Part shown: one piece after another, positions 10,830-31,204 of the stretch
Numbering within the stretch: the first letter of the stretch is position 1
How the letters are laid out: every line of letters begins with the position of its first letter
NCBI GenBank assembly: GCA_963934255.1
Contig: CAWVXU010000020.1
Location: 1 to 34,598 of the forward strand
Source of the DNA: an uncultured Fibrobacterales bacterium
GTDB lineage: Bacteria; Fibrobacterota; Fibrobacteria; Fibrobacterales; CAWVXU01
Direction: 5' to 3'
DNA length: 34,598 bases
Position numbers and translations under genes: made by a program
The notes under the pieces: generated by a model
Database searches by the model: none
Told to the model about the DNA's origin: nothing
Seen by the model: the letters and a program-made list of their open reading frames with translations, nothing else

Positions 10830-10832
10830 GTT

Positions 10833-12032
10833 TTGATCATATCTCGACTTCACTATCTCTATAAAACCTATCCAAGAAGACCAAAACATGCGGGTCTACT
10901 CATTCTACTTTATAATACTTGGGATGAGAAGCTGAGTCGAGGTGGGCAAACTCTCGTCTCACTTCTTATGCTGAGTCTATTTATTGAATTTTTACCCGGT
11001 CTCACATGGGCTGCCGGTTTTGCAGTCATGAGCATCATTGCTTTGACTTTTTCATTCTTAATGAGTTTACGCTCAATACCTCAAATACAGATAAAAGCTT
11101 GTTGCCCTAGTCTTGCAGTTGAAGGAAGTTCAGTTCTCGCAAGATTTGAACTTCAAAATACTGCACTCAAAAGTATCCCCAGCATAGGTATTCGACTTTA
11201 TCGTCTAAAAGACGGTCTAGTTTCCAAAAAAACATCCACATTTTTTGATCTTAATAACTCCGACCCGAGATCTCTTGAGCTTCAATTAGAAGTCAATTTA
11301 CGTGGTAATTATTTATTAAAAGAAATCTATCTCTTGCAAAGCGATCCTCTTGGCTTATTCTATAAACGCATGAAAATTGAAATTAATTGGGAACTCAGTG
11401 TTGTTCCTCAAAGTAGAAGTCATCAAGTTGTTCCTTGGCGTCATAAGTTGTTTTCTGAAAATTTACACAAACATCACCTGTTAGGCATACAATCTCAATA
11501 TCATTTCAAAGGAATGAGGCCTTTCCAAAAGGGAGACTCCAAGAAATTAATCCATCATAAAAGCTGGGCCAAGTCTCAAAATCCAATAGTTAAGGATTTT
11601 CACTATCAGCGCCCCACGCCTAATATCAAAATAATTATTGACCTTCACCTTGACTCAATTTGGAACAAACTTTCCTTTGAATATCTATTACAATACTTAA
11701 TAAATTTTCAACAGGAATTATTAAATCAAAATTACGACTTTTCACTCGAAACTTTACAAGGAAATCAAAGCACCTCCAAAAAAGATCTACACCTTATTCA
11801 TAGAACCTTAGCTGAAATTAAATCAAAGACAACTCATATCGCTTCTACAAAATCTATAAGCCTTAACAACCCAGGCAATACTCATGTGATTTTGGTTTTT
11901 TCAACTAAGGGGCCGCATACTTATGAATTAAATAAAAACGTTCAATGGGTCGAAGTCAATGATACTTTCACAAGTCAAATGGTATCAAAATTCCATACTC
12001 AACTAGGTTTTGATGGAACAATCACATCATGA
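10833..12032 (+). CDS. DUF58-domain membrane-anchored protein
   Basis: N-terminal TM pair; RG.Y...SDPLGLF; MRPFQKGD...IHHK variant of REY.PGD..R.IHWK; lies between moxR and the transglutaminase gene. Confidence 0.8.
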   Translation: MIISRLHYLYKTYPRRPKHAGLLILLYNTWDEKLSRGGQTLVSLLMLSLFIEFLPGLTWAAGFAVMSIIALTFSFLMSLRSIPQIQIKACCPSLAVEGSSVLARFELQNTALKSIPSIGIRLYRLKDGLVSKKTSTFFDLNNSDPRSLELQLEVNLRGNYLLKEIYLLQSDPLGLFYKRMKIEINWELSVVPQSRSHQVVPWRHKLFSENLHKHHLLGIQSQYHFKGMRPFQKGDSKKLIHHKSWAKSQNPIVKDFHYQRPTPNIKIIIDLHLDSIWNKLSFEYLLQYLINFQQELLNQNYDFSLETLQGNQSTSKKDLHLIHRTLAEIKSKTTHIASTKSISLNNPGNTHVILVFSTKGPHTYELNKNVQWVEVNDTFTSQMVSKFHTQLGFDGTITS

Positions 12033-13936
12033 GGAATTCAATTCATGCTAGTTTAATACTTTCATCCATTATGTGTGTTATTCTTTGGAATGCTGGAGTC
12101 TCGGAAATATGGCTCGGTTCAATAAGTTTGCTTTTTCTTATTCAAAGCTTCAGACGAAGTTATATATGGACACACCACACGTTGTTTTTTTGGGCTATTC
12201 CAATTATCCCGATATTAATTGTTTTTATTCAATCTGGCACAAATTTTCGCGAAATCATACAGGTAATATTACAACAACTATCATTGATGTTTTATATGAT
12301 GGGATCTTTTTTATTATTAAGTAGTCAACGCTCTCAGTTTTTATCACGAAGTAGAACTCTTTTTACTGCATCTATTATTAGCGCAGCTCCATTTTTAAGT
12401 GAATTACTCATCCTCATCCCCTTCCTCTTTATCGTCGGTGTATTTATCATTGGATTATACCCACCTGGTGAAAGTAGATTAATCAAAAAGCCATTTAAAA
12501 GAAATTTAATTGCATGGTCTCTAGTGATTTTGTTACTCTACCCGAGCCTCTATCTATTTGAGAGCCTAAGAGAACATGGCCAAAGTTGGAGTTCTAAAGT
12601 GTGGAGCCAATATTTTAATCCTCCTCAAATGAAAGGATTTTCATCTCTAACAGAACTAGGCAGTCTCGGGGTTTCATTGAGCTCCTCGGGCGACAATGAT
12701 TTGATGATTCAAGTAACATCAGACAAGTCACCAGGATATCTAAGAGGAATGAATTATCAGACTTACCATAGAGGGCGATGGCTTCATAGTTTAAAAGGTG
12801 TCGAGCTTAAACCTGTAGCTAATAGATTAGACCATCAAATTTATCGCTTTGACCAAAAATTCACCTTTCCAGATTATAATCATTCTAAAGAAGTCATCAA
12901 TCATCGCGACTTAAGAAGTCACATCTTTTATCATATCAATGATGCCTGGGTTGGAGTCCTTAGTGAAAAGGTTAAATTTCATCCGAGCCGTCACTTGCAA
13001 ATTGATGAAAACACAGAGAAAGGCTATTATTTTAGTGGAGAAAAAAACCATAACTTTGTGACTCATGAACGAGACTTAAAAATTCCAGATGAATTGCGCC
13101 TAACACTTCAATCCATTCTCATTGAAATGAATTCTAAAGAAAAACCAAAAACAAGTCAAGAATTACATCGATGGTTAAGGCTATTGAATCAATTTTATAG
13201 TCAACACTTCTACTATAGTTTTGATGTTGACCCTAGCCAAGAGAATGACCCCATCCTTGATTTCTTAGTCAATCAAAGGAAAGGCTTCTGTGAATATTTT
13301 GCAAGCGCCTCAGTGCTATTGGCTCGGGCTAACGGTATCCCCGCAAGACTTGCCAAAGGCTTTGCAAGCCCTACTCAAATGGATGACAATACCTGGTATT
13401 ATTTCCGTAAAAATGCTCATGCATGGATAGAGGTTCTCGACCCGGAAAAAGGCTGGATTAACTGGGATCCCACACCTTCAAACATGCTACCTGCAATAGC
13501 TAAACACCCTCTTCATCAGCGGTTATGGTTTCAAATCAAAGCAGCCATGCAAACGGGACGTTATTATTTTGAATATGGTCTATGGAAAGTATCAATAGAA
13601 AATCTCAGATTACACATTGAACTACACTTCATGGGATACATCGCGGGCTTAGTCTCTCTATTGCTACTCCGGGGAATACTATTAAAAATACGGTATTATC
13701 GACGGTCAAGCAGATTAGGTCCTTATTATTCAAAATCATCACCAGAATTACTTCGTTTACAGCAAGAAATTGACAGCCAATTTCAGAAATTAGGCCACCC
13801 CTGTCCTAACAACAGAAGCTACTTAAATCATTTAAGTTATTTGAGGGAAAGGCCCTTTGAAAAGGATGAATTAAAAGGCATTATTAATAAGGTATCAAGC
13901 TATGATGAAAAAAGGTTCCGAGAATTGGACTTTTGA
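12029..13936 (+). CDS. Polytopic membrane transglutaminase-like protein (TgpA/DUF3488-like)
   Basis: Multiple N-terminal TMs; YLRG..Y..Y...W; catalytic triad in GFCEYFASA, HAWIEV and WDPTP; ATGA overlap with DUF58. Confidence 0.88.
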   Translation: MRNSIHASLILSSIMCVILWNAGVSEIWLGSISLLFLIQSFRRSYIWTHHTLFFWAIPIIPILIVFIQSGTNFREIIQVILQQLSLMFYMMGSFLLLSSQRSQFLSRSRTLFTASIISAAPFLSELLILIPFLFIVGVFIIGLYPPGESRLIKKPFKRNLIAWSLVILLLYPSLYLFESLREHGQSWSSKVWSQYFNPPQMKGFSSLTELGSLGVSLSSSGDNDLMIQVTSDKSPGYLRGMNYQTYHRGRWLHSLKGVELKPVANRLDHQIYRFDQKFTFPDYNHSKEVINHRDLRSHIFYHINDAWVGVLSEKVKFHPSRHLQIDENTEKGYYFSGEKNHNFVTHERDLKIPDELRLTLQSILIEMNSKEKPKTSQELHRWLRLLNQFYSQHFYYSFDVDPSQENDPILDFLVNQRKGFCEYFASASVLLARANGIPARLAKGFASPTQMDDNTWYYFRKNAHAWIEVLDPEKGWINWDPTPSNMLPAIAKHPLHQRLWFQIKAAMQTGRYYFEYGLWKVSIENLRLHIELHFMGYIAGLVSLLLLRGILLKIRYYRRSSRLGPYYSKSSPELLRLQQEIDSQFQKLGHPCPNNRSYLNHLSYLRERPFEKDELKGIINKVSSYDEKRFRELDF

Positions 13937-13982: not shown

Positions 13983-14270
13983 ATGGGTGACGTTAAAGAA
14001 TTTAGATTAGAACTAGCAAGTGACGTTTTTGGTGACAAATCCTATGACTTGAAATTAAAGCTTTTGGATCTTATTCAAGAGGGTTATATCCATATCGTAC
14101 TTAATTTCAAAAACGTTAATATCATTGATTCTATTGGGTTAGGAATACTCTTGAAGACCCAACAAAACCTCAAAGGTGTTGGTGGTCAGCTTAGTATTGA
14201 AAATGCATCTAGCAGTGTCAGACACCTACTTGAAGTTACCTATCTGCACCGACAGATTAACATCCTTTAG
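13983..14270 (+). CDS. STAS-domain anti-sigma factor antagonist
   Basis: 95 aa; IVLNFKNVNIIDSIGLGIL with the conserved DSxG phosphoacceptor Ser. Confidence 0.88.
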   Translation: MGDVKEFRLELASDVFGDKSYDLKLKLLDLIQEGYIHIVLNFKNVNIIDSIGLGILLKTQQNLKGVGGQLSIENASSSVRHLLEVTYLHRQINIL

Positions 14271-14985: not shown

Positions 14986-15642
14986 TCAGATATCATCTTC
15001 TTCAATATCAAACAATTCAGATAAACCTTCTTCGTCAAGTAACTCTTCAATCAGAGAAGATGCCCCTCTTATCGTCAGCGTCCTTTGGCCTGTTAAATCA
15101 GCCAAAAAGATAAGAGCCTTACTATCGATAAACCCTAAGTTGCTGAGGTCCAATACAGGCTTTAACTTCTCATCGACAAGGTCTTTTAGAACATGTATAC
15201 CCTTGGTCATAGACATGAAGCCCTTGATGCTATAAATAGCCTCACTTGATGTTCGTTGAGTTTCTACTGTGAATACTAAATCTGGAATGGTTTCACGTAT
15301 TGTCAGTTCAGTTGATGCAATATCAAAATCACTCCGGGTAATATATAAATCCATCAATTTGGTCATCTGAGTCATTTCTAAAACATTGACAACTCCAAAA
15401 GATAAGTCACATAGGATAAGCTTGAGTTGGAATTCTTGTAGCAGTTTATAGACCTGAATAATTGAACTTAATTGAACGGAGAAAAGGCTTTCAACATTCT
15501 CTAACGATAAGACGATGTGCTGATTTTTTTTAAATAAAAGCTTCTCAACTTCATACAACAAAACCCTTGTATTGTCGGCTGGAAGCTCCTTGGGAGTCAT
15601 TACTGAATATTTTTCAAATGATTCAATTTTTAAATTTTTCAT
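14986..15642 (-). CDS. Tandem STAS-domain protein
   Basis: Two STAS-like halves: IVLSLENVESLFSVQL...V.NVLEMT and VLDLSNLGFIDSKAL; ATGA overlap with the upstream gene. Confidence 0.7.
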   Translation of the reverse strand: MKNLKIESFEKYSVMTPKELPADNTRVLLYEVEKLLFKKNQHIVLSLENVESLFSVQLSSIIQVYKLLQEFQLKLILCDLSFGVVNVLEMTQMTKLMDLYITRSDFDIASTELTIRETIPDLVFTVETQRTSSEAIYSIKGFMSMTKGIHVLKDLVDEKLKPVLDLSNLGFIDSKALIFLADLTGQRTLTIRGASSLIEELLDEEGLSELFDIEEDDI

Positions 15643-17258
15643 CGGAGTTCACCTTTTTCAAGTGGAATAGTTTGAATGGCATCCAAATTCCAATAAATTT
15701 TAATTTCTTTTAAACCATCAAAAAATTCAACTGTTTTGCCATACATTACGACTTCTAACTTAGGCTGTAATTCTTGAATTAACACCTGGGCAGGAAGGTT
15801 TGTTGAATCTGAAGCTGCTAAAGTTAATGACTGCCTTTTTTTTTCAACAAGAGTCTTCTTCTTCTTCGTCCCCTCGTACTCAATCAGAACTTTTTTTAGT
15901 TGATCTTTAGAGCGTTGAGTGATTTCAGTTGCTCTTTTTAACATCGCTTTCATAGACCTTAAACGATTTTCTAAGCCTTCAAGTGTTACTTGGAGCTTTA
16001 TATAAAGGGTGTTTAAATTATCAAATTTAACCAGTGCTTCTTCTTCTTTTCGGTTCAGAAACTCTATTTTTGTAGTCGCCCCGGCAGGCGTGCCAATTTT
16101 GTGACAAGCAACACGGTCGTACACAACAATATCGCAATTATTGATCAGACTATTGCTGCCGCTGGCGATTAATGCCTCGGCTTTCACTTTAGTATCGAAA
16201 AGGTGAAGGTCAAATTCAACAATACCTTCAGATATTATTTCTGAATGCTGGGCCATATTTACTCGGACACCTTTAGCCCCACTTATAAAAGCTTTACCTT
16301 TGCCAAAAACGCCTCTTTTAATATGAACAAACCCATTAGTTGAAATAACTCTAGCCGCTTCAACTTCGCCCTCAATAGTTATATCACCATCGGCTATTAC
16401 TTCAAAATTGGCTTGTACATTACCATGAATAACTACATCACCAGAATATTTAATATTACCGGTTTTAAAACTGACATTGCCTTGAACGACATAAAGTCGA
16501 CCAACAGATATAGCAAGCCCTTCGCGGTATAAATAACCGGAATTAAGAGCACGAAGTTCTAAATTATCCTCACTAATTATTGTGTTTTTACCGCGAGGTA
16601 AATTAGCATCATCTCCTGGAGTCGCCAATATTTCATGTCCAAAAATATTTTTACCAGACTCACCCGGGGTTGGAGCTATTCTTTTACAAATGATGGCGCC
16701 TTCTTTAATTTGTTGAATATTTTCAAAAACTTTAAAATCAACTGAACCATCACAATTAGCTAGTGGCTTGGCATCAGGATCAATTTCCACTAACTCCAAA
16801 ATTTTAGCATCATCCCCCCGAACAGCCGGGGTATATTTGGCAATAATATGGGTTGGGCCCCATGATTGAGAGGATATAATTTTATCAACAAAAGACCAAT
16901 CAACACCATGAATTACTTTTTTGACTTTAAGAATAAATTCCAGGTCATGCACACTTAGTACTAAGCCTGTATTTTTGATTGATGACCTAACAGTTAATTT
17001 GGCGTATTCCTGAGTGCAAATTATTTCTAGATGATTTAATTTACCTTGATCAAACCTTATAAAATGGGGGCCAGCAAATTCAGGTTGACCAGATTTATCG
17101 ACTAGGATTTGTCCTACACGCTGCATGTCCATGTTCATAATTAAATCGCGTAGAAGTTCATCTTCAATGTCTTGGATTTCTGTAAAATTTGACTCATCAT
17201 CAGCCGTCAGATACATGCCATCGCCCTTAGCTTCCCACTTTAATCCTACTAAATTCAA
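15639..17258 (-). CDS. FapA/DUF342-family protein
   Basis: G.DA, DGSVDFK, P.PG..GKNIFG, GKNT, V.GNV...TGNI.Y.GDV.I.GNV beta-helical repeats and a C-terminal coiled coil. Confidence 0.85.
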   Translation of the reverse strand: MNLVGLKWEAKGDGMYLTADDESNFTEIQDIEDELLRDLIMNMDMQRVGQILVDKSGQPEFAGPHFIRFDQGKLNHLEIICTQEYAKLTVRSSIKNTGLVLSVHDLEFILKVKKVIHGVDWSFVDKIISSQSWGPTHIIAKYTPAVRGDDAKILELVEIDPDAKPLANCDGSVDFKVFENIQQIKEGAIICKRIAPTPGESGKNIFGHEILATPGDDANLPRGKNTIISEDNLELRALNSGYLYREGLAISVGRLYVVQGNVSFKTGNIKYSGDVVIHGNVQANFEVIADGDITIEGEVEAARVISTNGFVHIKRGVFGKGKAFISGAKGVRVNMAQHSEIISEGIVEFDLHLFDTKVKAEALIASGSNSLINNCDIVVYDRVACHKIGTPAGATTKIEFLNRKEEEALVKFDNLNTLYIKLQVTLEGLENRLRSMKAMLKRATEITQRSKDQLKKVLIEYEGTKKKKTLVEKKRQSLTLAASDSTNLPAQVLIQELQPKLEVVMYGKTVEFFDGLKEIKIYWNLDAIQTIPLEKGELR

Positions 17259-17289: not shown

Positions 17290-18435
17290 TTATAGTATCA
17301 AATTCCAAACACAATAACCACTACTTTTCGTCAGTTTCTTCACCTTGCGAAAGTACGGCTTTGCCATTTCATCAAATTTTAAAAACTCGTTCGCCACCAA
17401 TATCACTTCACCTTGTGGGCTTAGTACTCTGAATAGCGCTTCAATCCACAATTCACCCAAGTGGTAATCACTTTTAGAGCCTACATGAAATGGAGGATTG
17501 GTGATAATAATATTGTATTTATTCATCTCAGTTGATAGCATATAATCCCAATACACAGCCGGACCTTCTTGTCTAGATAAGTTCAGTGCCAATGACTGAC
17601 ATGCCAAACTATGGGCATCACTATAATTTACTTGTGAAAAACCCAGCTTCTGAGCTTGAAGCCCTAAAACACCGCTACCTGCTCCAAAATCCATTATTTT
17701 TGAATCCAAAGGCTTGTCTTTTAATAAAACGTCAAGTTCCATCAGCAACAAAAGGGTTCCTTGGTCCACCTTTTGGTGGCCATACATGCCCAGTGTTGAT
17801 TGTAAATCAAATCCAGGGTACTTGACTTGACTAAAATACTCCATTGGATGGTGCTCTTGTCTCACGCCCTTGTCTTGGCTCTGGTCCTGGGTTAACTCCA
17901 TTAACGTTAAAGCAACGACTCTGCATGATTTCTTTAATTCTAGAGTATCACTTTTATAACCAAAGCTGATTGCCTTCTTGGGAAGGGACTTCATTCCCTC
18001 TTGATTACCACCCCAGACTAGAACTCTTTTTACCTCAGCTTTGGCTAATACTTGGAGTACTGCACGATTAAGATCAGCAGATTTGTTTATTTTAAAAACA
18101 ACACTTGTGTCTTTGGGCTGAGTTAAAACAAACTTCTCGAGTTCAATCCAATGAAAAGCTCGATCACTCCAAAGTCCTTGGCTATTTTTTTGACTTAAAG
18201 TAAAATCTTGAAACCACTGATGCATACAATCAATCTGTGCATTCCCATTAAGACTGAGTGTTTTTTGAATTAGACCACAACCAGGGTCTATTAATAACCA
18301 TCTAGGGTGGGGATTAAAAGCAAGACCTGCCAAGTGACGGATGATCAATTTTTGGCTTGGCTCGCCCTCTCCTGTGCCATGAGGATGACTCCACAGATTT
18401 GTTGTTTCACTCTGAAAAGCATGTTGAAGCATCAA
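17290..18435 (-). CDS. Class I SAM methyltransferase, RsmC/MTS-like
   Basis: VDQGT.LL, DFGAGSG.LG, IITNPPFH, L...GE..LVAN.FL; degenerate N-terminal domain with G.N..G.KS. Confidence 0.8.
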   Translation of the reverse strand: MMLQHAFQSETTNLWSHPHGTGEGEPSQKLIIRHLAGLAFNPHPRWLLIDPGCGLIQKTLSLNGNAQIDCMHQWFQDFTLSQKNSQGLWSDRAFHWIELEKFVLTQPKDTSVVFKINKSADLNRAVLQVLAKAEVKRVLVWGGNQEGMKSLPKKAISFGYKSDTLELKKSCRVVALTLMELTQDQSQDKGVRQEHHPMEYFSQVKYPGFDLQSTLGMYGHQKVDQGTLLLLMELDVLLKDKPLDSKIMDFGAGSGVLGLQAQKLGFSQVNYSDAHSLACQSLALNLSRQEGPAVYWDYMLSTEMNKYNIIITNPPFHVGSKSDYHLGELWIEALFRVLSPQGEVILVANEFLKFDEMAKPYFRKVKKLTKSSGYCVWNLIL

Positions 18436-19117
18436 TCACCCTCCATTCTCCGGGCTTAAGTCCTTCACACGTCAAATCACCCATACTCATTCTGTGCAAA
18501 TAATTAACTCTATGTCCGGTGGCGCCTAACATTCGCTTAACCTGATGATATTTACCTTCAGTAATTACCATGGCAATTGACCCATCTTGTTTGAGTTCAG
18601 CACGTTTGGCCTTGAAGATTCCTTTTTCACTTTTCAGTTCAACTCCTTCTATGAGCTGATCGACTATAGTTTGATCTAGCGTATCTTCGCAACGCAGGTG
18701 ATATTCTTTTTCTAAGTGAGACTTTGGTGAACAAAATTTATGGTTTATATCGCCATCGTCGGTTAAAAGCAACAAGCCACTTGTGTCCACATCGAGGCGA
18801 CCCACACACTGTACCTCACGATTAATGTACTCTTGAGGTAAAAGTTCAAAGACGGATGAATGATGAGTTGGCTTATGAGAACATTCAAATCCACTTTGTT
18901 TATTCATTATGATCAAAACTTTTTCCATAAAGAAATGATACTTTGAATTCCATTCAAAGCCAAGTACACTTCGATCTATGAGAGTCGTCGGTGAATCAAT
19001 AATTAAATCATCAATTTTTAGAGCACCAGCTTGGATACTTTTAACGATATCTTTACGTGAACCGAGCCCTTGACTTTGTACCAATTTCGTGGCACTAATT
19101 TTTCGTTTATTTTTCAT
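18407..19117 (-). CDS. rsuA: RsuA-family rRNA pseudouridine synthase
   Basis: S4-like N-terminus; VGRLDVDTSGLLLLTDDG; EGKYHQVKRM. Confidence 0.88.
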   Translation of the reverse strand: MKNKRKISATKLVQSQGLGSRKDIVKSIQAGALKIDDLIIDSPTTLIDRSVLGFEWNSKYHFFMEKVLIIMNKQSGFECSHKPTHHSSVFELLPQEYINREVQCVGRLDVDTSGLLLLTDDGDINHKFCSPKSHLEKEYHLRCEDTLDQTIVDQLIEGVELKSEKGIFKAKRAELKQDGSIAMVITEGKYHQVKRMLGATGHRVNYLHRMSMGDLTCEGLKPGEWRVIDASTCFSE

Positions 19118-19129
19118 TATATCTCCTAA

Positions 19130-20041
19130 TTATTTTATTTGTTTCCAAATAAATTGAACTAGTTTCTCTTCCCACATCCCAGTAAGTTCGTTTTTTGATA
19201 ATTTCCAATTTCCATATAGATGCCTTAAGGGTAAAGTCCAAATACATTTACATGCATACAGAATGAGTGAACCTAAATTCCAAGAAGAAGTTAGGTCGAG
19301 CTTTAATAAATAGGCATCAGGACCATAGACTACCGCCCATCGTCCTTTTGCAATCAAGGGATGAACACCACTTAGTCCTCCAAGTAGCGAGGAGATCTTC
19401 GCTAAAAGCATAGGGTCTATCGTTCTCATTTCAAAATGCCATACTTTTAGATTAAAATTAAATAGCTTGAGCAAATCCACACTACGACCATATGCCCACG
19501 CGGTTAGCTTAAGCAACACCTTTGGATCAAGAATAGTACGAAGATATCTTAGTTCTAAAGGTACCTTCGCCTGGTTAGGCTTATCTTTTTTGTTCTTTTT
19601 TGAAATTAAGGACGAATTTTTATTTGGATTTTTAGATCTAGGTTCTGATAAAGACTCAGTATCGTCTAGCTTTTTTGACTTATCCGACTTTTCTTCATAG
19701 TTATTTTCGATGCTTTTTTCGATAGACTCTGCCCTCATGAATTCGTCATTGAGGTGATATTTGGTATCCGAATCCACTAACTTATTTTCAGAATCAGAGG
19801 ATGCATATTTAACTGTTTTGTCCAGCGGAGTAGTTGAGTAGCCTGAGTGATGGTCAGGCGAATTATTACTCAAAACATCTGGCTTTGAATTAAACTCTTT
19901 TGACCAAGAATAAATAACCCAAAGGTAAAATTTGACATCAATTGACACCCTTGAATCTAACAAGCGCAAGTGGGCCTTAAAGAGAAACGGCACTCCTAAT
20001 ATAATAAGGAGTGCCGAAATAATTCCAAAAAGGTAATTCAA
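19130..20041 (-). CDS. Hypothetical membrane-anchored protein with a central K/S/D/E low-complexity linker
   Basis: 303-aa ORF abutting the mlaC stop; N-terminal hydrophobic helix; no motif recognised. Confidence 0.7.
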   Translation of the reverse strand: MNYLFGIISALLIILGVPFLFKAHLRLLDSRVSIDVKFYLWVIYSWSKEFNSKPDVLSNNSPDHHSGYSTTPLDKTVKYASSDSENKLVDSDTKYHLNDEFMRAESIEKSIENNYEEKSDKSKKLDDTESLSEPRSKNPNKNSSLISKKNKKDKPNQAKVPLELRYLRTILDPKVLLKLTAWAYGRSVDLLKLFNFNLKVWHFEMRTIDPMLLAKISSLLGGLSGVHPLIAKGRWAVVYGPDAYLLKLDLTSSWNLGSLILYACKCIWTLPLRHLYGNWKLSKNELTGMWEEKLVQFIWKQIK

Positions 20042-20626
20042 CTATTCAGCCGCTTTATCTTTCAAAATCTTCACCAATTCATCAAAACTTTTATCCTTCA
20101 AGATGTCTTTAAATTGCTCACGGTAATTTCTCATCGTAGATAAGTCATTAATAACTAGATCCCATGCTTTCCAATTTCCATCATTGTTTTTGAATTTATA
20201 AGCTAAAATAGACTCTTCACCTTTGGCCCAGACATGTGCCGTTAAAGTTTGTTTTTTACCACTAAAATCGGCTTCTTCATAAACTGTTTTATCTGATTGA
20301 TAAACTTCGAGTTTTTTGACCGATGCATTCTCCACCATTGCTTTGAAAGCTGCAACAAATTCAGCTTGCTTTGCTATATCTTGAGATTTCCATGTAGAAG
20401 ATCCCAATGCACGTCGGCCCATCTCTTCGAAATCAAAGATATCATTTATCAAGAATTTCATGCGGTCGACATTTTCTTGGCTTGCTGCTGATTGATTCCT
20501 TTTGATTAATGATTGAAGTTCAATATCATTTTTTTTAATAGCGTCCATAGGACTCGCGCAAGTCAGGCTGATTGAAAGAAGTAAAGCTGGTAAAATATTC
20601 TTTTTTTTAAAAATCGTAAATTTCAT
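20042..20626 (-). CDS. MlaC/Ttg2D-family periplasmic lipid-binding protein
   Basis: Signal peptide; FDFEEMGRRALG..W, QAEFV..F, WKAWDLVI..LS...NYREQF. Confidence 0.85.
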   Translation of the reverse strand: MKFTIFKKKNILPALLLSISLTCASPMDAIKKNDIELQSLIKRNQSAASQENVDRMKFLINDIFDFEEMGRRALGSSTWKSQDIAKQAEFVAAFKAMVENASVKKLEVYQSDKTVYEEADFSGKKQTLTAHVWAKGEESILAYKFKNNDGNWKAWDLVINDLSTMRNYREQFKDILKDKSFDELVKILKDKAAE

Positions 20627-20646
20627 GTTGGCATCCTATGTCTCAT

Positions 20647-22113
20647 TTATTGAGATGTCTTTGTGTTATAAATACTTTGATATTCAGCTAAAGTCCAACC
20701 CACTTTAGAAAAAAGTGCTCCTACAGCCAAATTATATGCGTAAACTGAGTCATAAAGGTCTTTGCGATTGGACATGTTTTGCTTAAAAGCCTTAAGTAGT
20801 ATCCCACCTTGTGAAGGGTCAATGTCGTATTTCATTGCCGCACCCTTGAGCCAAGCGTCCGAGGCACGCAATGAACGCTGAGCGCTCTTAATACGTTTTT
20901 TGTGAAGAGTAACCTTGTTGTATGCCTCTTCCATGAGCAGTAATAGCCCAGTTGCCGCATAGATATCTTTTTTCTTCAATAAATTATATTCGTACTTGGC
21001 TTTCTTCAGTTTATCTTGTTGTGCCCAAAAATTCAAATTGTATTGAACACCTACTCCAAGCGCGCCGTCTATTGTATTGATTGGATCTCGTGAAAAGGCA
21101 TCTTCACCAAAATTAGTTCGATCACCCGCCCATGATTTGGCGTATTTAAATTCTCCAAAAAGGAAGAATCCAGGTCCCATTTCACCTCCAGCTAAATTGA
21201 TAAGAGCACGTTTGGCTTTGAGGCCGTAATTTAATTTCTTTAAATCAGGATGTTTCTCATATAACGCTTTTTTTAAGTCCTCCAGCGGTGGAATAACATC
21301 TTTACGCTGTCTAATCAGGGTATCCAAAATTTGAATATGTTCCCCTTGCTCACCTAGGCTAAATCTGAACCCTAAGCGAGCACGAGCAAGGCCTTCTTCT
21401 GTTTCATAGAGTGCTTTATCTAAAGAGTACCTATTGGATTTTAATTCTAGCAAATCAAACTGAGATACATTTTCGTCTTCCTCATCCAGAGCTTCTTCTA
21501 ATTTATCTGCTACTTTAGTGAGCTCTTTAAGCGCTTTGGAGGCGAGTCGATTCATACTCATCGCATAACTTAAACCATAATAAATCTTTTGTAATTCATA
21601 ATTCAAAACAACTTGAACTTTTTTGTAATCCCAAGCTGTCACATCTAAATCAGCTTGAGCAGCCATCAAACCATAGCGTAATCGCGAAATGTTTAGCGGC
21701 TGCGCCATCTCAATTTTAGTACCAAAATAAGGACCAAAAGTTGAAAAGTCATAACGGGTTTCTTTAGTCTCTATTAATTTACCATCAACAAGCTCAGTCT
21801 CAACTACTTCGTTTATATCCGGGGCAGGCCCAAATAAGATACTAGCTTTAAATTTGGGTAGAATGGCAGAGTTTTTAATGCTTTTGATTCGAAGTGATTT
21901 AATTGACTTCTTGTATTGAGCTTCTGCTAAAGTTGGATCGTTATCTATACTTGTTGAAACAAATTGATGAACATCCCATGAAATCGGTAGCTCAACATTA
22001 GACTGAGGTACCGTTTCAAGCACAGTATTAGATTCTTTTGCGTATGCAAAGGAACTGATAACAACAAATAAAGTGACCCAAAGGGTGACAAGGGAAGTTT
22101 GGCCCAATTTCAT
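20647..22113 (-). CDS. TolC-family outer-membrane efflux protein
   Basis: Signal peptide; two OEP-like repeats (NDPTL...ILPKF and HPDL...PGFFL); alternating beta strands and long helices; YNLAV..L ending. Confidence 0.8.
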   Translation of the reverse strand: MKLGQTSLVTLWVTLFVVISSFAYAKESNTVLETVPQSNVELPISWDVHQFVSTSIDNDPTLAEAQYKKSIKSLRIKSIKNSAILPKFKASILFGPAPDINEVVETELVDGKLIETKETRYDFSTFGPYFGTKIEMAQPLNISRLRYGLMAAQADLDVTAWDYKKVQVVLNYELQKIYYGLSYAMSMNRLASKALKELTKVADKLEEALDEEDENVSQFDLLELKSNRYSLDKALYETEEGLARARLGFRFSLGEQGEHIQILDTLIRQRKDVIPPLEDLKKALYEKHPDLKKLNYGLKAKRALINLAGGEMGPGFFLFGEFKYAKSWAGDRTNFGEDAFSRDPINTIDGALGVGVQYNLNFWAQQDKLKKAKYEYNLLKKKDIYAATGLLLLMEEAYNKVTLHKKRIKSAQRSLRASDAWLKGAAMKYDIDPSQGGILLKAFKQNMSNRKDLYDSVYAYNLAVGALFSKVGWTLAEYQSIYNTKTSQ

Positions 22114-22164
22114 AAAGAAAAACCATTTTCATTACTTTGGTGTAAAGATACTAATTTTGAATCT

Positions 22165-23340
22165 ATGCGTAGAATTTATGTCGATGAGAATATCCCTAAA
22201 GCCCACGATTTCTTTCAAGAATTCGGTGAGGTGAAAACATATCATGGTAGAGACTTGAAGTCTGAGGATTTGAGCGATGCCGACATACTTATTGTCCGTT
22301 CTATCACTCAAGTCAACCGTCAATTGTTAGAGAACACACCCGTCAAATGGGTCGGCACTGCTACCGCTGGCGTTAACCATATCAACCAGACTGACCTCAT
22401 AGATTTGGGTGTTTTATGGGAGTCAGCTGCCGGTTGCAATGCCGTAGCTGTGGCGGAATATGTCTTAGCAATTTTGTTTCGTTTATATGCTGAGGAAAAA
22501 TTGACCCCTCAAGATAAAATTGGAGTCATTGGTTACGGGCAAGTTGGACAGGCTTTGACTAATAAACTCACCGCCTTGAGTATTCCCTGGATTGCCGTTG
22601 ACCCTCCTCGAGCAGCAAAATTCGATGATATTGATTATGCTCATTGGGACAACCTAGCAGAATGTTCACTTATATCAGCCCATACTCCTTATACTCAATC
22701 TGGATTACACCCAACCCATAAAATGATTTCTGCGAGCAGCTTTAAGGGTTTCAAACCAAATTTACATGTAATTAATGCATGTCGAGGTGAAGTCATTGAT
22801 GAGGATTCAATTATTCAAAGTCGAACACTATTTGGGGACTTATTTCTTGATGTATTTTGGAATGAACCTTCCCCGGACTTGTCTTGGATGAAACAATCTA
22901 GACTCAATACACCTCATATTGCCGGCTATAGTTATCGTGGTAAACTTAATGGTTCGGCCATACTTGTAGAGAAATTGAATTCCTTTTTGGGATTAAACAT
23001 TCCTATTCACCAGGGACACTTCTTAAAAAGATCATCTACAATGACGGTAGTAGAATTTGAGGCCGAAAACCCACAAGCCAATTTAATAAAGAGCTTGATT
23101 AGCTGGATGCCTTCTCACTACAACCCTTGGTCAGATTCTGAGCGATTTGAAAAATCATGGCTTGATGAAAATCGCAGCTTTAGCTTTGATCAACTCAGAA
23201 AAAACTATCCTATTCGTCTTGAATTTGGTGATGTTGATTTGGAAATAAAGACCCACTGCCAATCTAATATTAGAACTGACTTTTACAAAAAACAGCTCCA
23301 CTCTTTAGGTTTTAGGTCCGTTAAAGTTTCATCCCTATGA
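22165..23340 (+). CDS. pdxB: Erythronate-4-phosphate dehydrogenase; true start probably ATG 22165
   Basis: I.VDENIP, LIVRS.T.V, GTATAG..H, AAGCNA.AVAEY, G.GQVG, INACRG, DVFWNEP, TPHIAGYS.RGK, FD.LRKNYP.R.EF. The longer ORF-track start overlaps the divergent TolC gene. Confidence 0.92.
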   Translation: MRRIYVDENIPKAHDFFQEFGEVKTYHGRDLKSEDLSDADILIVRSITQVNRQLLENTPVKWVGTATAGVNHINQTDLIDLGVLWESAAGCNAVAVAEYVLAILFRLYAEEKLTPQDKIGVIGYGQVGQALTNKLTALSIPWIAVDPPRAAKFDDIDYAHWDNLAECSLISAHTPYTQSGLHPTHKMISASSFKGFKPNLHVINACRGEVIDEDSIIQSRTLFGDLFLDVFWNEPSPDLSWMKQSRLNTPHIAGYSYRGKLNGSAILVEKLNSFLGLNIPIHQGHFLKRSSTMTVVEFEAENPQANLIKSLISWMPSHYNPWSDSERFEKSWLDENRSFSFDQLRKNYPIRLEFGDVDLEIKTHCQSNIRTDFYKKQLHSLGFRSVKVSSL

Positions 23341-24045
23341 TTCGGTAGGTTCTTCACCAAATTTATCTACTAGTGAATAATAGTTGGATAGCATTCTGTT
23401 AAGATAACGCTTAGGTAATTTCGCTTTATTGTATTTGAGGGCTTTATTCATAGCCCCTGGCCCAATATTATAAGCCATAATCCCTTTACTTAAACTTTGA
23501 TATTTGGCAACCAAATCCATCAGATAAAGTGTTCCATATAAAATATTTTGCTCTGCCCTAATCACCCCACCTTCACTAAGCTTTTTATGTCCAAACTTTT
23601 GGGCCACCCATTGAGCTGTGGACTCTTTAATCTGCATTAACCCCAACGCTCCACTTTCCTTGCCAGACCTATATCTACCAATAGCCCTGGGATTACCTCT
23701 ACTTTCAACACTCACAAGAGCTATAACCAAAAGTGGATCAAAACTTAGCGCGTTTGACATATTGTACAGTTGTTCACTTGTTTTGATAAATGATTTTTTT
23801 TCCATTTTATTTCTGGTTATAAAAGCAAAAGCATTTTGAACACGAAGACGTTTTTTCATCGTCAAAATTTGAAGTTTTGATTCTTGGACCTTGGATTGAA
23901 TACTAGGTATGTCTTTACGAACATTACTCATTTGATAGTTCACATGCACAAGTTTGGCAAAGAGGCTGCTCATCGCCACCACAATTAATGTCAAAATAAG
24001 ATAGAGCGTAGCTTGAGACAAACGCCAAGTGACCACCGCTTTCAT
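23335..24045 (-). CDS. Membrane-anchored SLT-domain lytic transglycosylase
   Basis: N-terminal TM and coiled coil; VES (catalytic Glu), GALGLMQI, NI..G..YL, AYN.G. Confidence 0.88.
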   Translation of the reverse strand: MKAVVTWRLSQATLYLILTLIVVAMSSLFAKLVHVNYQMSNVRKDIPSIQSKVQESKLQILTMKKRLRVQNAFAFITRNKMEKKSFIKTSEQLYNMSNALSFDPLLVIALVSVESRGNPRAIGRYRSGKESGALGLMQIKESTAQWVAQKFGHKKLSEGGVIRAEQNILYGTLYLMDLVAKYQSLSKGIMAYNIGPGAMNKALKYNKAKLPKRYLNRMLSNYYSLVDKFGEEPTES

Positions 24046-24716
24046 TTTTGTTTTTTTCTCAAATGATCTACCCAGTCAGGGATGTTTTTATATTTCACTC
24101 GGCTTAAGCTGTCTTTTAATAAGCCTAATTGTCTGAGGGGCGCTAGCTTCGTCTCAAGTTCTTTTAATTCACGACTTATGCTTTTTTGTTCGACAATGAG
24201 CTCTTGAACTTCTCGTCTAGATTTATCCAAATCTTCTGACTGAGTCTGAATCATCGTTAAGAGTGTCATCACCCAACCAGCTAGTAATAGCAAAACTAAA
24301 GCCGCCGTCGTTGGAGAAATCCGAATTCCAGTTTTTTTTGAATATTGCAACCCAACTGTCCTTAACGCCCGAACAAAACCTTGTTTTCTATAAGTTTCAT
24401 AGTTAGGGTAGATTTCAAACAGATGCTTATATGGAGCAAAAAACTTGACGTTTGATTTGTTGTCAAAAATTAAAATTAATTTAGCCTTGCGTCCGGCTAA
24501 ATTATTTTGAAGTTCCAAGAAGTTCTGCAAAATTTCCGCATCACGAATTTTGGCTTTTTGTAAATGAACGAAGAATTTTTTTTGGCCTTCGCTGATAAAT
24601 GAATCAAATTTTTCTTGAACAAACGGCCACTGATTGATGAAAAATATTCCATCAAATACCAGGCGTACAGCGCCCTCTATAAATTCAATCTTCGTATCTA
24701 ATTGTGAATTTCTCAT
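24042..24716 (-). CDS. Hypothetical protein: N-terminal STAS-like domain, single TM, C-terminal coiled coil
   Basis: STAS-like alpha/beta pattern in about residues 5-105; TM AALVLLLLAGWVMTLL; heptad-rich tail; ATGA overlaps at both ends. Confidence 0.65.
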   Translation of the reverse strand: MRNSQLDTKIEFIEGAVRLVFDGIFFINQWPFVQEKFDSFISEGQKKFFVHLQKAKIRDAEILQNFLELQNNLAGRKAKLILIFDNKSNVKFFAPYKHLFEIYPNYETYRKQGFVRALRTVGLQYSKKTGIRISPTTAALVLLLLAGWVMTLLTMIQTQSEDLDKSRREVQELIVEQKSISRELKELETKLAPLRQLGLLKDSLSRVKYKNIPDWVDHLRKKQK

Positions 24717-26650
24717 CCGAATAAAAATCCGGCCTTATGACAAATAATTTTTGACATTAATGAAATCTTTTCTTGACCTAGTAACTTGCATTCCCATAAG
24801 GGGAGAAGTTGTATCCCTTGGAACTGACTTTCAAATTCATTTCCCATCCCAAAATCAAGAATCGGTCTAACAAATAATTTACATGGTTTATGGAATTCCC
24901 AATGAAGACTAATCCCTTTGGATTTGTCTTTCCAAATAAGTTTACTCACATCTTCAATTAGGTGATTGTTCTTAATATCAACACGAGCTCCTTGTACTGA
25001 TAAAGTACAGGCGGTGACATCAATCCCACTTGAAGAGAGATTGAATAGAGACCCATAATAGCCATCGAACTCTCTAAAACTTCCATTTTTTAGCTGCTGT
25101 GTCCAAAGAAATTCAGAGCCTTTACCTTTGAATGTAAATACTTTGTCCATTTGCATGATATGCTCAACTTGATTAAACTTAATCCGCTGTTCAGCACTTA
25201 AAAGTAACTGAGAAGAGTCCTCACGTGGTTTAATTTGAAAATCCATCGGTTGGGATAAGATATGAGATTCATTGTGAATCCAATCAGGGATGTGAACTAA
25301 ATCAGCGTCCTCTTTTGAACATAATACATCTCGAAGCCCCACCATAGGAAAAACCTGGTAAATAGGGCCCTTACCTTCACTGCGTTCTGATTGTAGATAA
25401 GAATTTATCAAATTATGGCGTGCAGGCCTATAGTCAAGGCTTCTCAAAACACCACCACGCTTAGGCTCAACAATCACAGCAATTTGATCATTGGCAAAAA
25501 GGACCTCCTTAGCACCATTTCCAAAAAAATCGGTCACTTCTACTTGGAGGCCACGAACACCAGAAAGTTTACGAAGTCTATCTTCAATATCAATTAACTT
25601 TGAGTGAATTTCTTGACGATCTTCGACATATCTAATCCCACCGGTTTTGGCCGAATTTCTATAATAATAAAGGGATTGTGCAGGTAAAAGCATGTCATAA
25701 AAACCGTTGCGAATCTTTAAGTTTTCAACACTGTCGATGGCTTTGTGAATATAAATCATCTTCTTATGGATGTAATTGCATTCGGGTTGTAAAATTAATA
25801 AATCACGGCAACTTGTTTGATGTTCTTTGAGGCCGAGACTCTTTCCAATAGAGGGCTGAAGGTATATTGTCCCACCGGAAATTTGTTGGTCTACTTGAGA
25901 GTCTAAAGTTTCAAAACTAACCTCAAGACTATCTTGTTTCATTCGTTTGAGTAGTTTCTTGAGCCTGTCAAACCATTCATCATGAAAATGTCCACGGTTT
26001 CTTCTAATGAAAGGTAAATCAAGTTGAGTAAAGGATGTCTGCTCTGAAATTTCATTTAATTGCCCAATGAACTTTTTGTACTGACCATCAACAAAATGCT
26101 TGGAAAGATTATGGGAACTTGATAAAACCTTGAGAACTTTACCTCTGTCCTCAACAGTCCAGAAACCCTTGTCTGTCCCATATCGCCAAAGGGAATCCTG
26201 TAATTGGTATTGTTTTAAACAAGTGTATTCAAACCCATGTCTAGAAAGTAAATCAATGCATTCAGACTCCCAGACATAGGAAGGTAAAACAAAGCCCCGA
26301 GGCCTTACATTAAGTGTTTGCTCAAGTAAAGCTAAGTGTTTTTTAATATGCAGATCTTGGGTTTTACGTGGAATTAATGGAAAAATTGGGTCAAAATAAC
26401 CACCGCCGAGCCATTGAATTTGCCCCGCTTTCGTCTTTTCTAATATTGCTCCCAATATGGAGTTATTTACCTTAGAGAGCGCTTCTAGGAATCGGCCAGA
26501 AAAATAAACACTCACCTTAGTCAGGCCAACTTCATCCATTAAAGTCAAAACTTCCGTACAAAACACTCTTGTGATTTTTTCAATCTCAGAACTCTTGAGA
26601 TAAGGAGCATCATTTAGATGAAATGCCATAGATAGGTTTAGTTTAGTCAT
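24713..26650 (-). CDS. GH57 4-alpha-glucanotransferase-like protein (GH57 + DUF1925/DUF1926-like), probably catalytically inactive
   Basis: YFSG, LGGGYFDPI, RPRGF.LP..VWE, IYL...S, PE.NY.HKKM, AQ...YY....GG, D...G..E and P.RGG.L..LD match the family layout; the nucleophile motif is altered. Confidence 0.8.
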   Translation of the reverse strand: MTKLNLSMAFHLNDAPYLKSSEIEKITRVFCTEVLTLMDEVGLTKVSVYFSGRFLEALSKVNNSILGAILEKTKAGQIQWLGGGYFDPIFPLIPRKTQDLHIKKHLALLEQTLNVRPRGFVLPSYVWESECIDLLSRHGFEYTCLKQYQLQDSLWRYGTDKGFWTVEDRGKVLKVLSSSHNLSKHFVDGQYKKFIGQLNEISEQTSFTQLDLPFIRRNRGHFHDEWFDRLKKLLKRMKQDSLEVSFETLDSQVDQQISGGTIYLQPSIGKSLGLKEHQTSCRDLLILQPECNYIHKKMIYIHKAIDSVENLKIRNGFYDMLLPAQSLYYYRNSAKTGGIRYVEDRQEIHSKLIDIEDRLRKLSGVRGLQVEVTDFFGNGAKEVLFANDQIAVIVEPKRGGVLRSLDYRPARHNLINSYLQSERSEGKGPIYQVFPMVGLRDVLCSKEDADLVHIPDWIHNESHILSQPMDFQIKPREDSSQLLLSAEQRIKFNQVEHIMQMDKVFTFKGKGSEFLWTQQLKNGSFREFDGYYGSLFNLSSSGIDVTACTLSVQGARVDIKNNHLIEDVSKLIWKDKSKGISLHWEFHKPCKLFVRPILDFGMGNEFESQFQGIQLLPLWECKLLGQEKISLMSKIICHKAGFLFG

Positions 26651-26656
26651 ATTGAT

Positions 26657-26665
26657 ATTATACCA
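26657..26665 (-). promoter_or_regulatory. Extended -10 promoter candidate positioned for a leaderless mRNA
   Basis: Minus strand reads TGGTATAAT-ATCAAT-ATG(26650); no Shine-Dalgarno. Confidence 0.55.
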
Positions 26666-29047: not shown

Positions 29048-31204
29048 ATGTCAAAGGAGCCTCATTTGAGTGAAATGGAACCTGCAGTTCAAGCGGAATT
29101 ACCGCTTAACCCTACTTCTGAAACACCAATTTCTACTGAAGAACCCAAAAAACGTCGCGGAAGACCTAAAAAAGTGGTTGAAGAAGCCGTTGTGAGCGAT
29201 GCTCCAATTCAAACTGCACCGTCAGAGCCTCAATTAGAATCCTCTGAAGCACCTAAAAAACGTCGTGGCAGACCTAAGAAATCGAATGTTGAATCAGAAG
29301 CTTCAGCCATCCTAGAAGAAGTTAGCTCTGCTCCAGCGCCAACTCCTAAGACAGTTGCTCGCACTCGCCGTCCCAAAATAGTCAAAGAAACAGAAGTTTC
29401 ACCAGCATCTGAATCAGCAGCAGCTCTAGAATATTCTGAAAAACAGCCTAGTGAAAACCAAGCTACCGCTGGCCAAACGTCTGATAGTGTCGCCGCCCAA
29501 CCAACCGACGAAACACCTAAACCTAAGCATATAATCAAAAATGCAGCCGCTGAAAAAATTTCAAATCTAGTTGCTGAAAAAGCTCTTGCTAGAGCAGAGG
29601 CTGCTGCTGCCGCTGCTAGCTCCACAGCTGAAACTGATACCCAATCGCCATCAGACCCGGTTGCTGAGACTAAAAACGAAACCAAGCCAGAAACACCGAC
29701 ACAGGCTCAAGGTGAGTCACAAGATGATTCAGGCCAAGCTGATCGTAAAGAGCGTGGAAATCGTCAAAATCGTGATAATCAACGCAATAACCGTGATAAT
29801 CAAGGTGGCCGCGAGAATAACAACAATCGTAAAAACAATAAAAACAAATCTAAAAATCCTCGCCGCAAACAACAGTTTGACTACGAGATACCTCCTGAGT
29901 TTGAAGACGAACCTACAGGTCCAGAACCAGATCCAGCCAAAGCTGCAGTAGCTCAAGCACATTGGAAAGACCTTCGCTCTAAACAACCCTATGAACTTTT
30001 CAAAATCGCTCAAGAACTTGAAATCCCTGACATCAGATATATGCGTAAACAAGCGCTCATCTATAAAATTCTAGAGATTACCACTGGCGAAGAAGTCCCT
30101 ATCTATGCTGAAGGTGTGCTTGAAATCATGAAAGAGGGCTATGGTTTCTTAAGAAGTGCGGACCACAACTATATAGCTGGTCCTGATGATATTTATATCA
30201 GCCCTCAGCAAGTTAAACGTTTTGACCTAAGAAATGGTGATAATATCACTGGTCAAGTTCGAGCACCTCGAGATAACGAAAAATATTTCGCACTGATGCG
30301 CATTACCACCATCAATGAAGTAACCCCTGCTGTCTCTCGTCGACGTATGCACTTTGATAACTTAACTCCACTTCATCCTACTGAAAAACTAAAGCTTGAA
30401 TGGCAACATGATGAGTATTCCACTCGTGTCATGGATCTATTTACTCCTATAGGTAAGGGACAACGTGGTGTGATTCTCGCCCCTCCTCGTACAGGTAAAA
30501 CAGTTCTTTTGACCAATATCGCCAACGCGATTTCTCAAAATCACCCTGAAGTTAAACTGATGGTACTACTTGTCGATGAGCGTCCCGAAGAAGTTACAGA
30601 CATGTCTCGCTCAGTCAAAGGTGAAGTTTTAAGTTCTACTTTTGATGAACACCCTGAACGTCACATTAAAGTAGCTGATATGTTACTTGAAAAGGCCAAG
30701 CGCATGGTTGAACAAGGTCACGACGTCGTGGTATTACTTGACTCAATTACTCGACTAGCGCGCGCCAACAATGTTGTTATCCCTCACTCAGGTAAAATTC
30801 TTTCTGGTGGTGTGGATGCTATGGCTTTACAAAAACCAAAACGTTTCTTTGGTGCGGCTCGTAATATTGAAGGGGGTGGCTCACTCACAATCATTGGTAC
30901 TGCACTCGTCGAAACTGGGTCCAAAATGGATGAGGTCATCTTTGAAGAATTCAAGGGCACTGGTAACATGGAACTAGTACTAGATCGTAAGCTGGCGGAG
31001 AAACGCATCTATCCTGCTATTGATATTTTCAAATCAGGAACACGTAAAGAAGAGCTTCTATTAAGTAGCGATGAAATGCGTAAAATGCATGTATTACGTC
31101 GTTACCTTCAGGATTTATCCTCAATGGAAATCATGGAATTCATGAAAGATAAATTGAAAAATTCCAAAAATAATGCTGAATTCATGAATATGATGAACGG
31201 GTAA
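29048..31204 (+). CDS. rho: Transcription termination factor Rho with a long N-terminal disordered extension
   Basis: [22 protein letters not shown]...[50 protein letters not shown]. Confidence 0.97.

Follow-up and report, generated by a model that had tools for sequence, protein, structure and literature searches.

A stretch of 34,598 nucleotides (nt) from an uncultured Fibrobacterales bacterium (contig CAWVXU010000020.1, here called the window, whose forward-strand numbering is used throughout) carries three genes, read from the minus strand, that form an overlapping cluster conserved at the level of the phylum Fibrobacterota. Gene 1 encodes a pseudoenzyme of the GH57 family, gene 2 a protein with a predicted STAS domain, one transmembrane segment and a coiled coil, and gene 3 a predicted membrane-anchored lytic transglycosylase of the SLT family. 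This module is real, made of known parts and, in the literature that we searched, undescribed; the mechanism that we discuss for it, which is read from sequence, may place the transglycosylase under control from the cytoplasm. The features that the argument uses are as follows, all on the minus strand.

26657-26665, minus: extended -10 element, exact sequence TGnTATAAT, 6 nt before the ATG of gene 1
24713-26650, minus: gene 1, dead GH57 4-alpha-glucanotransferase-like ("4AGT-like") protein of 645 residues without a transmembrane segment, predicted to be cytoplasmic (Pfam, AlphaFold2, Foldseek, residue loss)
26279-26281, minus: codon of Ser124, which takes the place of the GH57 nucleophile Glu (alignment to 1K1W)
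24713-24716, minus: ATGA stop/start overlap of genes 1 and 2 (from the sequence; orthologues mostly overlap by 4, 11 or 14 nt)
24042-24716, minus: gene 2, 224 residues, with STAS domain, strand before the membrane, single transmembrane segment and coiled coil, N terminus predicted to be inside (profile, fold, transmembrane prediction)
24396-24704, minus: predicted STAS domain (SpoIIAA fold), about residues 5-107, conserved phospho-serine missing (profile and fold)
24126-24332, minus: gene 2 anchor, about residues 129-197, comprising a TGxR(L/I)S strand, transmembrane segment and coiled coil (alignment and model)
24042-24045, minus: ATGA stop/start overlap of genes 2 and 3 (from the sequence)
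23335-24045, minus: gene 3, predicted membrane-anchored lytic transglycosylase of the SLT family, 236 residues (Pfam PF01464 and conserved motifs)
23821-24027, minus: gene 3 anchor, about residues 7-75, comprising an [RW]-x-S strand, transmembrane segment and coiled coil, in register with the gene 2 anchor (hhalign)
23704-23706, minus: codon of the catalytic Glu114 of the SLT domain (invariant in 52/52 rows)

A conserved cluster in the Fibrobacterota

The original prediction, made from the letters of the window, had described three genes joined by consecutive ATGA overlaps, and the three open reading frames (ORFs) and both overlaps are indeed present as listed. It had also been tied beforehand to a search for conserved synteny, which was found. 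Gene 2 has matches in 230 of 296 Fibrobacterota genomes with a single query and in 233 with a family profile; four of the latter, all from family f7 with E values near 1e-13, are presumed to be plain STAS proteins, so that 229 remain. The phylum was assigned from Atlas taxa and from the source names of homologues; one unpublished genome, G253, is a negative row in these searches and in the one for gene 1, and no claim depends on it by itself. We compared gene neighborhoods in 192 genomes, picked by score and spread and thus not at random; because related genomes are not independent, the counts describe a pattern and carry no statistical test. The trio is adjacent in 182 of these 192 genomes. 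Gene 1 lies directly upstream of gene 2 in 187 (the remainder being three contig edges and two other arrangements), and the SLT gene directly downstream of it in 187 (one edge and four others, all in genus g6). The junctions in orthologues mostly overlap by 1-14 nt. In the four g6 loci the SLT gene stands apart from genes 1 and 2, yet it is retained elsewhere in 10/10 genomes of that genus.

Where gene 2 is missing, the other two genes are nearly always missing as well. Of 67 genomes that lack gene 2, three have a full-strength match to gene 1, all at contig ends, and of 66 such genomes three have an SLT orthologue, each of these genomes being incomplete or contig-broken. All three genes have been lost jointly in whole families and in four genomes, 93-98% complete, of families that otherwise bear the module. 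The presence of the trio is thus close to all-or-none across genomes. The flanking genes, by comparison, vary while the trio persists (61 loci compared). Pyruvate phosphate dikinase (PPDK) is the upstream neighbor in 26 of these loci, nearly always in divergent orientation, and TolC-like and MlaC-like genes follow the SLT gene directly in most Fibrobacterales loci and are absent from the loci of other lineages. We considered TolC-MlaC as a further part of the module and rejected it, as it is restricted to Fibrobacterales and weakly co-expressed. Among the neighbor clusters of the 61 loci, no secretion or pilus genes recur beside the trio. Apparent fusions of GH57 with gene 2 and of gene 2 with SLT in high-GC genomes proved to be overlapping frames with false upstream starts, and in no ORF did more than one of the three profiles match at full strength. 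A divergent PPDK gene precedes gene 1 in many non-Fibrobacterales loci; the source genome has no PPDK match.

The original prediction had further given the cluster its own extended -10 promoter candidate. By itself the single site, although exact, is not significant: a consensus promoter scan counted 23 promoter-like sites where 19.3 +/- 5.8 are expected, which is chance level, and 26657-26665 was not among them. Its position, however, is kept. In 55 of 82 orthologous loci, the start of gene 1 is preceded by a -10-like hexamer whose end lies 5-10 nt away (mean of shuffled controls 12.3, maximum 22), and 40 of these 55 also have TTG at -35 spacing, whereas a hexamer at the same position precedes gene 2 in 1/89 loci and gene 3 in 2/81. 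This position predicts a leaderless transcript that begins at gene 1. The co-directional upstream genes folK-dNK-panC are present in just 3/61 loci. In the source genome, 189 of 1432 long ORFs have such a hexamer at the same distance (5-10 nt) from the ATG. This suggests that leaderless mRNAs are frequent there.

Published condition means for Fibrobacter succinogenes, in the available part of PMC6204037 (Table S2), bear on expression. The tags Fisuc_0668-0661, which we mapped by order and annotation, follow in their annotation the gene order of the Fibrobacterales loci, and the SLT gene appears as two locus tags, so that the module corresponds to the four tags Fisuc_0668-0665. Over 14 condition means these four have mutual correlations of 0.81-0.92, and each has the other three as its best correlates among 38 genes, against a background 99th percentile of 0.82 (697 pairs). 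For the TolC and MlaC genes, downstream of the module, the correlation with gene 2 is r 0.52 and 0.25. Module levels drop modestly as growth rate rises (Spearman -0.58 to -0.79), and the GH57 tag Fisuc_0668 is significant for growth rate and not for substrate, that is, carbon source.

The three proteins and their anchors

Gene 1 keeps the fold of a GH57 4-alpha-glucanotransferase. Pfam finds the GH57 domain (PF03065) and two 4-alpha-glucanotransferase domains (including PF09095), and an AlphaFold2 model (pLDDT 91.8) has the (beta/alpha)7 barrel, helical bundle and C-terminal beta-sandwich that characterize the family. The model matches the Thermococcus litoralis 4-alpha-glucanotransferase (1K1W/1K1X) over the full length and all three domains, with a Foldseek TM-score of 0.76 to 1K1X (E 7e-37) and a profile E value of 5e-57. 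The nucleophile Glu of that enzyme, its acid/base Asp loop and most of its subsite aromatics, in contrast, are missing. In the nucleophile column, within conserved sequence region (CSR) 3, the window protein has Ser124; Glu occurs in 2 of 58 aligned orthologues, and in 2 of the 160 rows of a larger set that have a residue there (27 incomplete rows left out). The acid/base Asp of CSR-4 (DDGEKFG) is found in 0/58 rows, the DGEKFG loop being deleted in 58/58 and the preceding Asp kept in 25/58. As a control, ten paralogues (families f7, f8 and f9) retain the catalytic Glu and Asp in 10/10, and some genomes carry both an active-type and a dead GH57. The original prediction of a dead GH57 thus holds.

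The losses extend to the glucan subsites. The equivalents of W219 and Y270 and the Trp/His of CSR-5 are each found in 0/58 orthologues, though invariant in the ten active paralogues; according to the available part of PMC9582752, W219 and Y270 line subsites +1/+2 in a related enzyme, where W219 is essential for binding at these subsites. In CSR-1 the second His is kept in 12/58 rows and the first in 30/58. The residues of the pocket vary between lineages, and those conserved across lineages are mostly Gly, Pro, Trp and salt-bridge residues common to active enzymes. Gene 1 therefore lies outside the active GH57 4-alpha-glucanotransferases, both catalytic residues being missing, and outside any class defined by retained glucan-subsite residues. 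Judged by its sequence and predicted fold, it is a pseudoenzyme that has kept the fold and lost its catalytic and most of its glucan-subsite residues.

The GH57 proteins of the module form one clade in a quick tree made without an outgroup (SH-aLRT, an approximate likelihood ratio test, 99). In the same tree a branch (97) separates the 24 rows with the motif W-x-A-E-R-V-W, spirochaete and Fibrobacterota rows among them, from the others. Activity may or may not have been lost in one event that the spirochaetes share; the tree, with its long branches, fits either case. The module itself was sought in Spirochaetota and the idea rejected: gene 2 was not found in 251 genomes, where the one match was a plain STAS protein of 116 residues. 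The Treponema 4AGT-like genes have unrelated neighbors in 5/5 loci; by eye, from the translations, an Rnf-like cluster precedes them, and MinD/FlhG-like, FapA-like and lgt genes follow (L189:57-14026, L174, L162 and L169). Several side observations concern other GH57 genes. Two family-f8 module GH57 proteins (L034:5948-7846 and L036:4419-6302) keep the nucleophile Glu and lack the acid/base loop. The source genome has a second GH57 (828 residues, L092:1-2484, minus strand, contig C11) with catalytic-type CSR-3 and CSR-4 motifs, and several active 4-alpha-glucanotransferase paralogues are followed by a gene like those of phosphoenolpyruvate utilizers.

For gene 2, a Pfam scan of the window protein gave no match, but the family profile finds SpoIIAA in the PDB (E 2.5e-9) and Pfam STAS is recognized in 54 of the 66 members. 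When superposed on anti-sigma antagonists, the model reaches target-normalized Foldseek TM-scores of 0.76-0.85 over about 100-120 columns, so that the fold is the alpha/beta fold of the SpoIIAA type. A search across the whole library returned 26 proteins at E up to 1e-30; outside the family, most matches are to proteins with STAS alone. A single transmembrane segment is predicted in 64/66 rows, followed by a long helix, and in 65/66 the positive-inside bias falls on the STAS side of the membrane, by which the STAS domain is predicted to be cytoplasmic. Profile, fold and transmembrane counts thus agree with the architecture first suggested for this protein, and the STAS fold, which had been named beforehand as a check, was recovered. 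The column that we take to be the STAS phospho-serine site (the Ser after a conserved Asp) has Ser in 7/66 rows and Asp or Glu in 124 of 192 orthologues. At residues 59-60 (24535-24540, minus) the window protein has Ala where the majority of orthologues have Asp/Glu, as if a phosphomimetic had become fixed. Weak DivIC matches occur in 6/66 rows; gene 2 as FtsB/DivIC was rejected, as a separate DivIC above cut-off lies elsewhere in 5/5 genomes tested.

Gene 3 matches Pfam SLT (PF01464) at E 2.6e-22. Glu114, Gly135, Met137, Gln138, Ala191, Asn193 and Gly195 are present in 52/52 rows, which comprise the catalytic Glu (ES), GxMQ and AYNxG motifs, and in a larger set the catalytic Glu occupies all 185 rows with a residue there. 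One N-terminal hydrophobic segment (50/52 rows) and a coiled coil stand ahead of the SLT domain. The membrane anchor, coiled coil and intact active site named in the original prediction are thus all present, and gene 3 is predicted to be a peptidoglycan-cutting enzyme of the SLT family. Its charge bias is weak (22/52 rows), and its predicted topology is taken from the requirement that the SLT domain be periplasmic.

The membrane anchors of genes 2 and 3 are, from their sequences, homologous and in register. Profiles of the two align with a probability of 96.9% in hhalign over 72 ungapped columns, with a score of 52.4 as against at most 23.7 in 25 block-shuffled controls, and the anchors are equal in length and register. 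When a hidden Markov model (HMM) of the SLT anchor was run over 5198 frames of the source genome, gene 2 was the best non-self match (18.8 bits; the next 12.1), and 61 of 63 gene 2 rows reach 15 bits. The motif [RW][LIFVM]S just before the transmembrane segment occurs in 129/185 SLT proteins and 125/191 gene 2 proteins, compared with 7 of 276 control transmembrane proteins, and the relocated SLT proteins of genus g6 still start with an R-(L/F)-S strand in 9/9 fetched copies. A search of the Atlas with the SLT anchor gave scores all below 0.8.

A distant lineage has a simpler arrangement. In loci L301-L303 a gene 2 homologue directly precedes an orthologous SLT gene in 3/3 (215-220 bits). No GH57 was found in these loci within 8, 8 and 2.7 kb upstream. 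Because this lineage has the pair without GH57 in the locus, the oldest core is likely to be gene 2 with the SLT gene, the GH57-like protein having been tied to it in Fibrobacterota. At its C-terminal end the distant gene 2 homologue has a probable SH3b-like domain (Pfam SH3_3, E 6e-5, under the curated cut-off). The distant pair (L301:2348-7690, L302 and L303) is flanked by what appear, from translations read by eye, to be large secreted protease-like proteins with C-terminal sorting-type domains.

Possible working of the module

How might these parts act together? We favor a reading in which the proteins of genes 2 and 3 would pair in the inner membrane through their related strand-transmembrane-coiled-coil anchors, for which the homology of the anchors gives indirect support. 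The STAS domain would then be a cytoplasmic handle for the SLT protein, and the dead GH57 a protein-binding partner at that handle rather than a glucan sensor. In such an arrangement, a predicted lytic transglycosylase could be positioned or switched from the cytoplasm, wall cleavage would be placed or gated, and the module may have a role in wall growth or cell separation. We hold it likely that the STAS/lytic-transglycosylase membrane pair is the core, and judge the reading that adds the GH57 pseudoenzyme as its cytoplasmic partner to be evenly balanced between right and wrong. The N-in topology, the gene 2-SLT pairing, the GH57-STAS contact, the regulation of activity and the role in the wall are all things that we infer.

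Several results weigh against this proposal. The reverse anchor search is weak, the SLT being the sixth non-self match at 8.2 bits and 6 of 63 SLT proteins reaching 15 bits, and homologous anchors could come from a tandem duplication without pairing. In mean-field direct coupling analysis of 187 gene 2/SLT pairs (effective number 96), topologically impossible pairs dominate; z*sqrt(n) peaks at 3.6 at offset 112, where the anchor register is about 111, but within a broad raised band of about 90-118 and dominated by noise. In gene 1, the residues conserved over the three lineage groups include none that is conspicuously new when compared with active enzymes. The SLT gene is split into pieces in 4/187 loci (two further loci are cut by contig ends), and such split genes, as also in the F. 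succinogenes table, may mean either that the SLT is dispensable or that the sequences contain errors. Gene 2 was not found by the profile search of the 296 genomes in eight Fibrobacterota families, and FtsB exists as a separate gene (5/5 genomes), so the module is not a universal division part. Finally, co-expression shows co-transcription only.

The origin of the anchors allows a more specific version, in which tandem duplication of one anchor gave a STAS copy and an SLT copy that form a heterodimer, and the pseudoenzyme docks on the cytoplasmic strands and gates wall cleavage by metabolite or growth state; this we regard as possible, though on the unlikely side. The original prediction had instead put forward a carbon-status relay, in which the dead GH57 would bind an alpha-glucan (glycogen or maltodextrin) and the STAS domain and coiled coils would relay its state to the SLT enzyme. 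Gene 1 has an intact 4-alpha-glucanotransferase fold, PPDK lies upstream in 26 of the 61 loci, the first CSR-1 His survives in 30 of 58 rows, and in F. succinogenes, where glycogen turnover matters, the module genes are higher at slow growth (available part of PMC6204037), all of which would suit such a relay. But the binding step itself is weakened, because the subsite residues are mostly gone (the DGEKFG loop and the W219-, Y270- and CSR-5 equivalents from every one of the 58 rows, W219 being the residue essential for +1/+2 binding in the available part of PMC9582752) and because the distant gene 2-SLT loci have no GH57 nearby. Moreover, the pocket residues differ by lineage, Fisuc_0668 tracks growth rate and not carbon source in the available expression table, and the glycogen synthase of the source genome is a weak GT5 match alone (E 1e-5). 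Glucan sensing by gene 1 is therefore doubtful in the light of these residues, although glucan could bind at a different surface, and the relay as a whole seems improbable.

Equally improbable, in our judgment, is a purely structural role, with gene 2 tethering the SLT protein for local opening of the wall at an envelope-spanning assembly and the STAS domain and dead GH57 serving as scaffold. The TolC-like and MlaC-like genes directly after SLT in most Fibrobacterales loci fit this idea, as does the SH3b-like domain on the distant gene 2 homologues. Non-signaling STAS adaptors such as MlaB are without the phospho-serine, and the STAS domain of gene 2 resembles them in this. These downstream genes, however, are missing from the loci of other lineages, are separated from the trio in the window by an inserted pdxB and correlate poorly with gene 2 in the available F. 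succinogenes data, and no secretion or pilus genes recur beside the trio. Last, the three proteins could act separately in a co-regulated operon with no shared complex, their order kept by translational coupling and common timing. The separation of SLT in all four g6 loci, the distant genes 2-3 without gene 1 in the locus, the unrelated neighbors of the spirochaete 4AGT-like proteins together with the failure to find gene 2 in the 251 Spirochaetota genomes, and the noise-dominated covariation of gene 2 and SLT would all fit this reading. Against it stand the joint loss of the trio in whole families and in the four nearly complete genomes, the persistence of the trio while its flanks change, and anchors of the same length and register whose strand motif is kept even after the SLT gene has moved; we give this explanation, too, a small chance of being correct. 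Compared with these alternatives, the membrane pair with a docked pseudoenzyme seems to us the better account.

Relation to known systems and to the rest of the window

Elements of the proposed scheme have counterparts elsewhere. FtsB and FtsL are a pair of bitopic proteins with transmembrane and coiled-coil segments, and FtsEX controls wall hydrolases from the cytoplasm. The likeness to the former is the transmembrane-coiled-coil pair, although canonical DivIC/FtsB is encoded elsewhere in the same 5/5 genomes; the likeness to FtsEX-EnvC/PcsB is the proposed cytoplasmic control of a hydrolase, although the module has no ABC ATPase. Gene 2 is similar in fold and, remotely, in sequence to the anti-anti-sigma factors SpoIIAA/RsbV. 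Those proteins are soluble and carry the phospho-serine, whereas gene 2 is predicted to be membrane-anchored with a periplasmic coiled coil and its phospho-serine is unconserved, which places it outside that group; no anti-sigma kinase appears among the annotated recurrent neighbor clusters of the 61 loci.

A precedent for the logic of the favored reading is SteA-SteB-RipA of the Mycobacteriales. In the available parts of PMC9897464 and PMC12977500, SteA and SteB are encoded by adjacent genes and form a pair in the membrane whose enzyme-like domain, on the cytoplasmic side, is of doubtful activity, and this pair positions or activates a peptidoglycan hydrolase via coiled-coil contacts. The likeness would lie in the proposed working logic. 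The TPPK-like domain of SteA, the receiver-like domain of SteB and the NlpC/P60 domain were not found in the three proteins of the module, which is thus not a member of that system. In the module, by contrast, the SLT hydrolase makes up one half of the membrane pair, a STAS domain would be the part in the cytoplasm and the pseudoenzyme is a separate GH57-like chain.

Gene 1, taken alone, belongs to a described group. Martinovicova and Janecek (2018) defined a "4AGT-like" group of GH57 with 63 bacterial entries of mean length 623, and in Table S1 most listed members are spirochaete, and an F. succinogenes protein of 618 residues is listed as well (available part of PMC6037648). Gene 1 has the features of this group, and the Fibrobacter entry of Table S1 has the CSR-3 motif F-N-S-S-x-V, as do the Fibrobacterales rows of the module. 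The description, in the available part of that source, is in silico and without function or gene context, and the neighbors of the Treponema members differ from the module. The original prediction that no such system had been described therefore stands for the trio and falls for the dead GH57. Neither the trio nor a combination of STAS with a lytic transglycosylase or with peptidoglycan and SH3, nor one of a lytic transglycosylase with a pseudoenzyme, was found described in the literature searched, which omits most subscription papers, and the same literature yielded nothing on how Fibrobacterota control their wall.

In few lineages is it understood how the cell turns lytic transglycosylases on and off from within, and the Fibrobacterota include major cellulose degraders of the rumen and the termite gut. 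The module is a specific three-protein candidate for wall control in this phylum, and it gives a context to the "4AGT-like" pseudoenzymes, so far without function in the literature. CAZy-style annotation would score gene 1 as a GH57 glycosidase despite its lost active site. If the favored reading is true, the module would have solved independently the problem that FtsEX and SteAB handle. The less likely duplication version, with its docked pseudoenzyme, would give the first case in which a glycosidase pseudoenzyme is shown to govern a peptidoglycan hydrolase across a membrane.

The rest of the window holds some minor points. Between the SLT and TolC-like genes lies pdxB (22099-23340, plus), which overlaps SLT at its stop (23335-23340) and tolC at its start; most other Fibrobacterales loci have no such insertion, and SLT there runs directly into TolC-MlaC. 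The block at 18407-22113 (minus), which is conserved in Fibrobacterales, consists of TolC-like, MlaC/HpnM-like, hypothetical and RsuA proteins, with no ABC or RND partner beside it; the conserved hypothetical protein (19130-20041) has no Pfam match and scores 31 bits to its own family HMM. Two more genes for STAS proteins, of which one has tandem domains, and a gene of the FapA family (13983-14270, plus; 14986-15642, minus; 15639-17258, minus) lie 7-10 kb from the module and are not conserved beside it. Rho (29048-31204, plus) has an N-terminal extension of about 300 residues with an AT-hook-like match, and 9885-13936 (plus) encodes a MoxR-type AAA ATPase, an unannotated protein of 399 residues and a transglutaminase-like protein.

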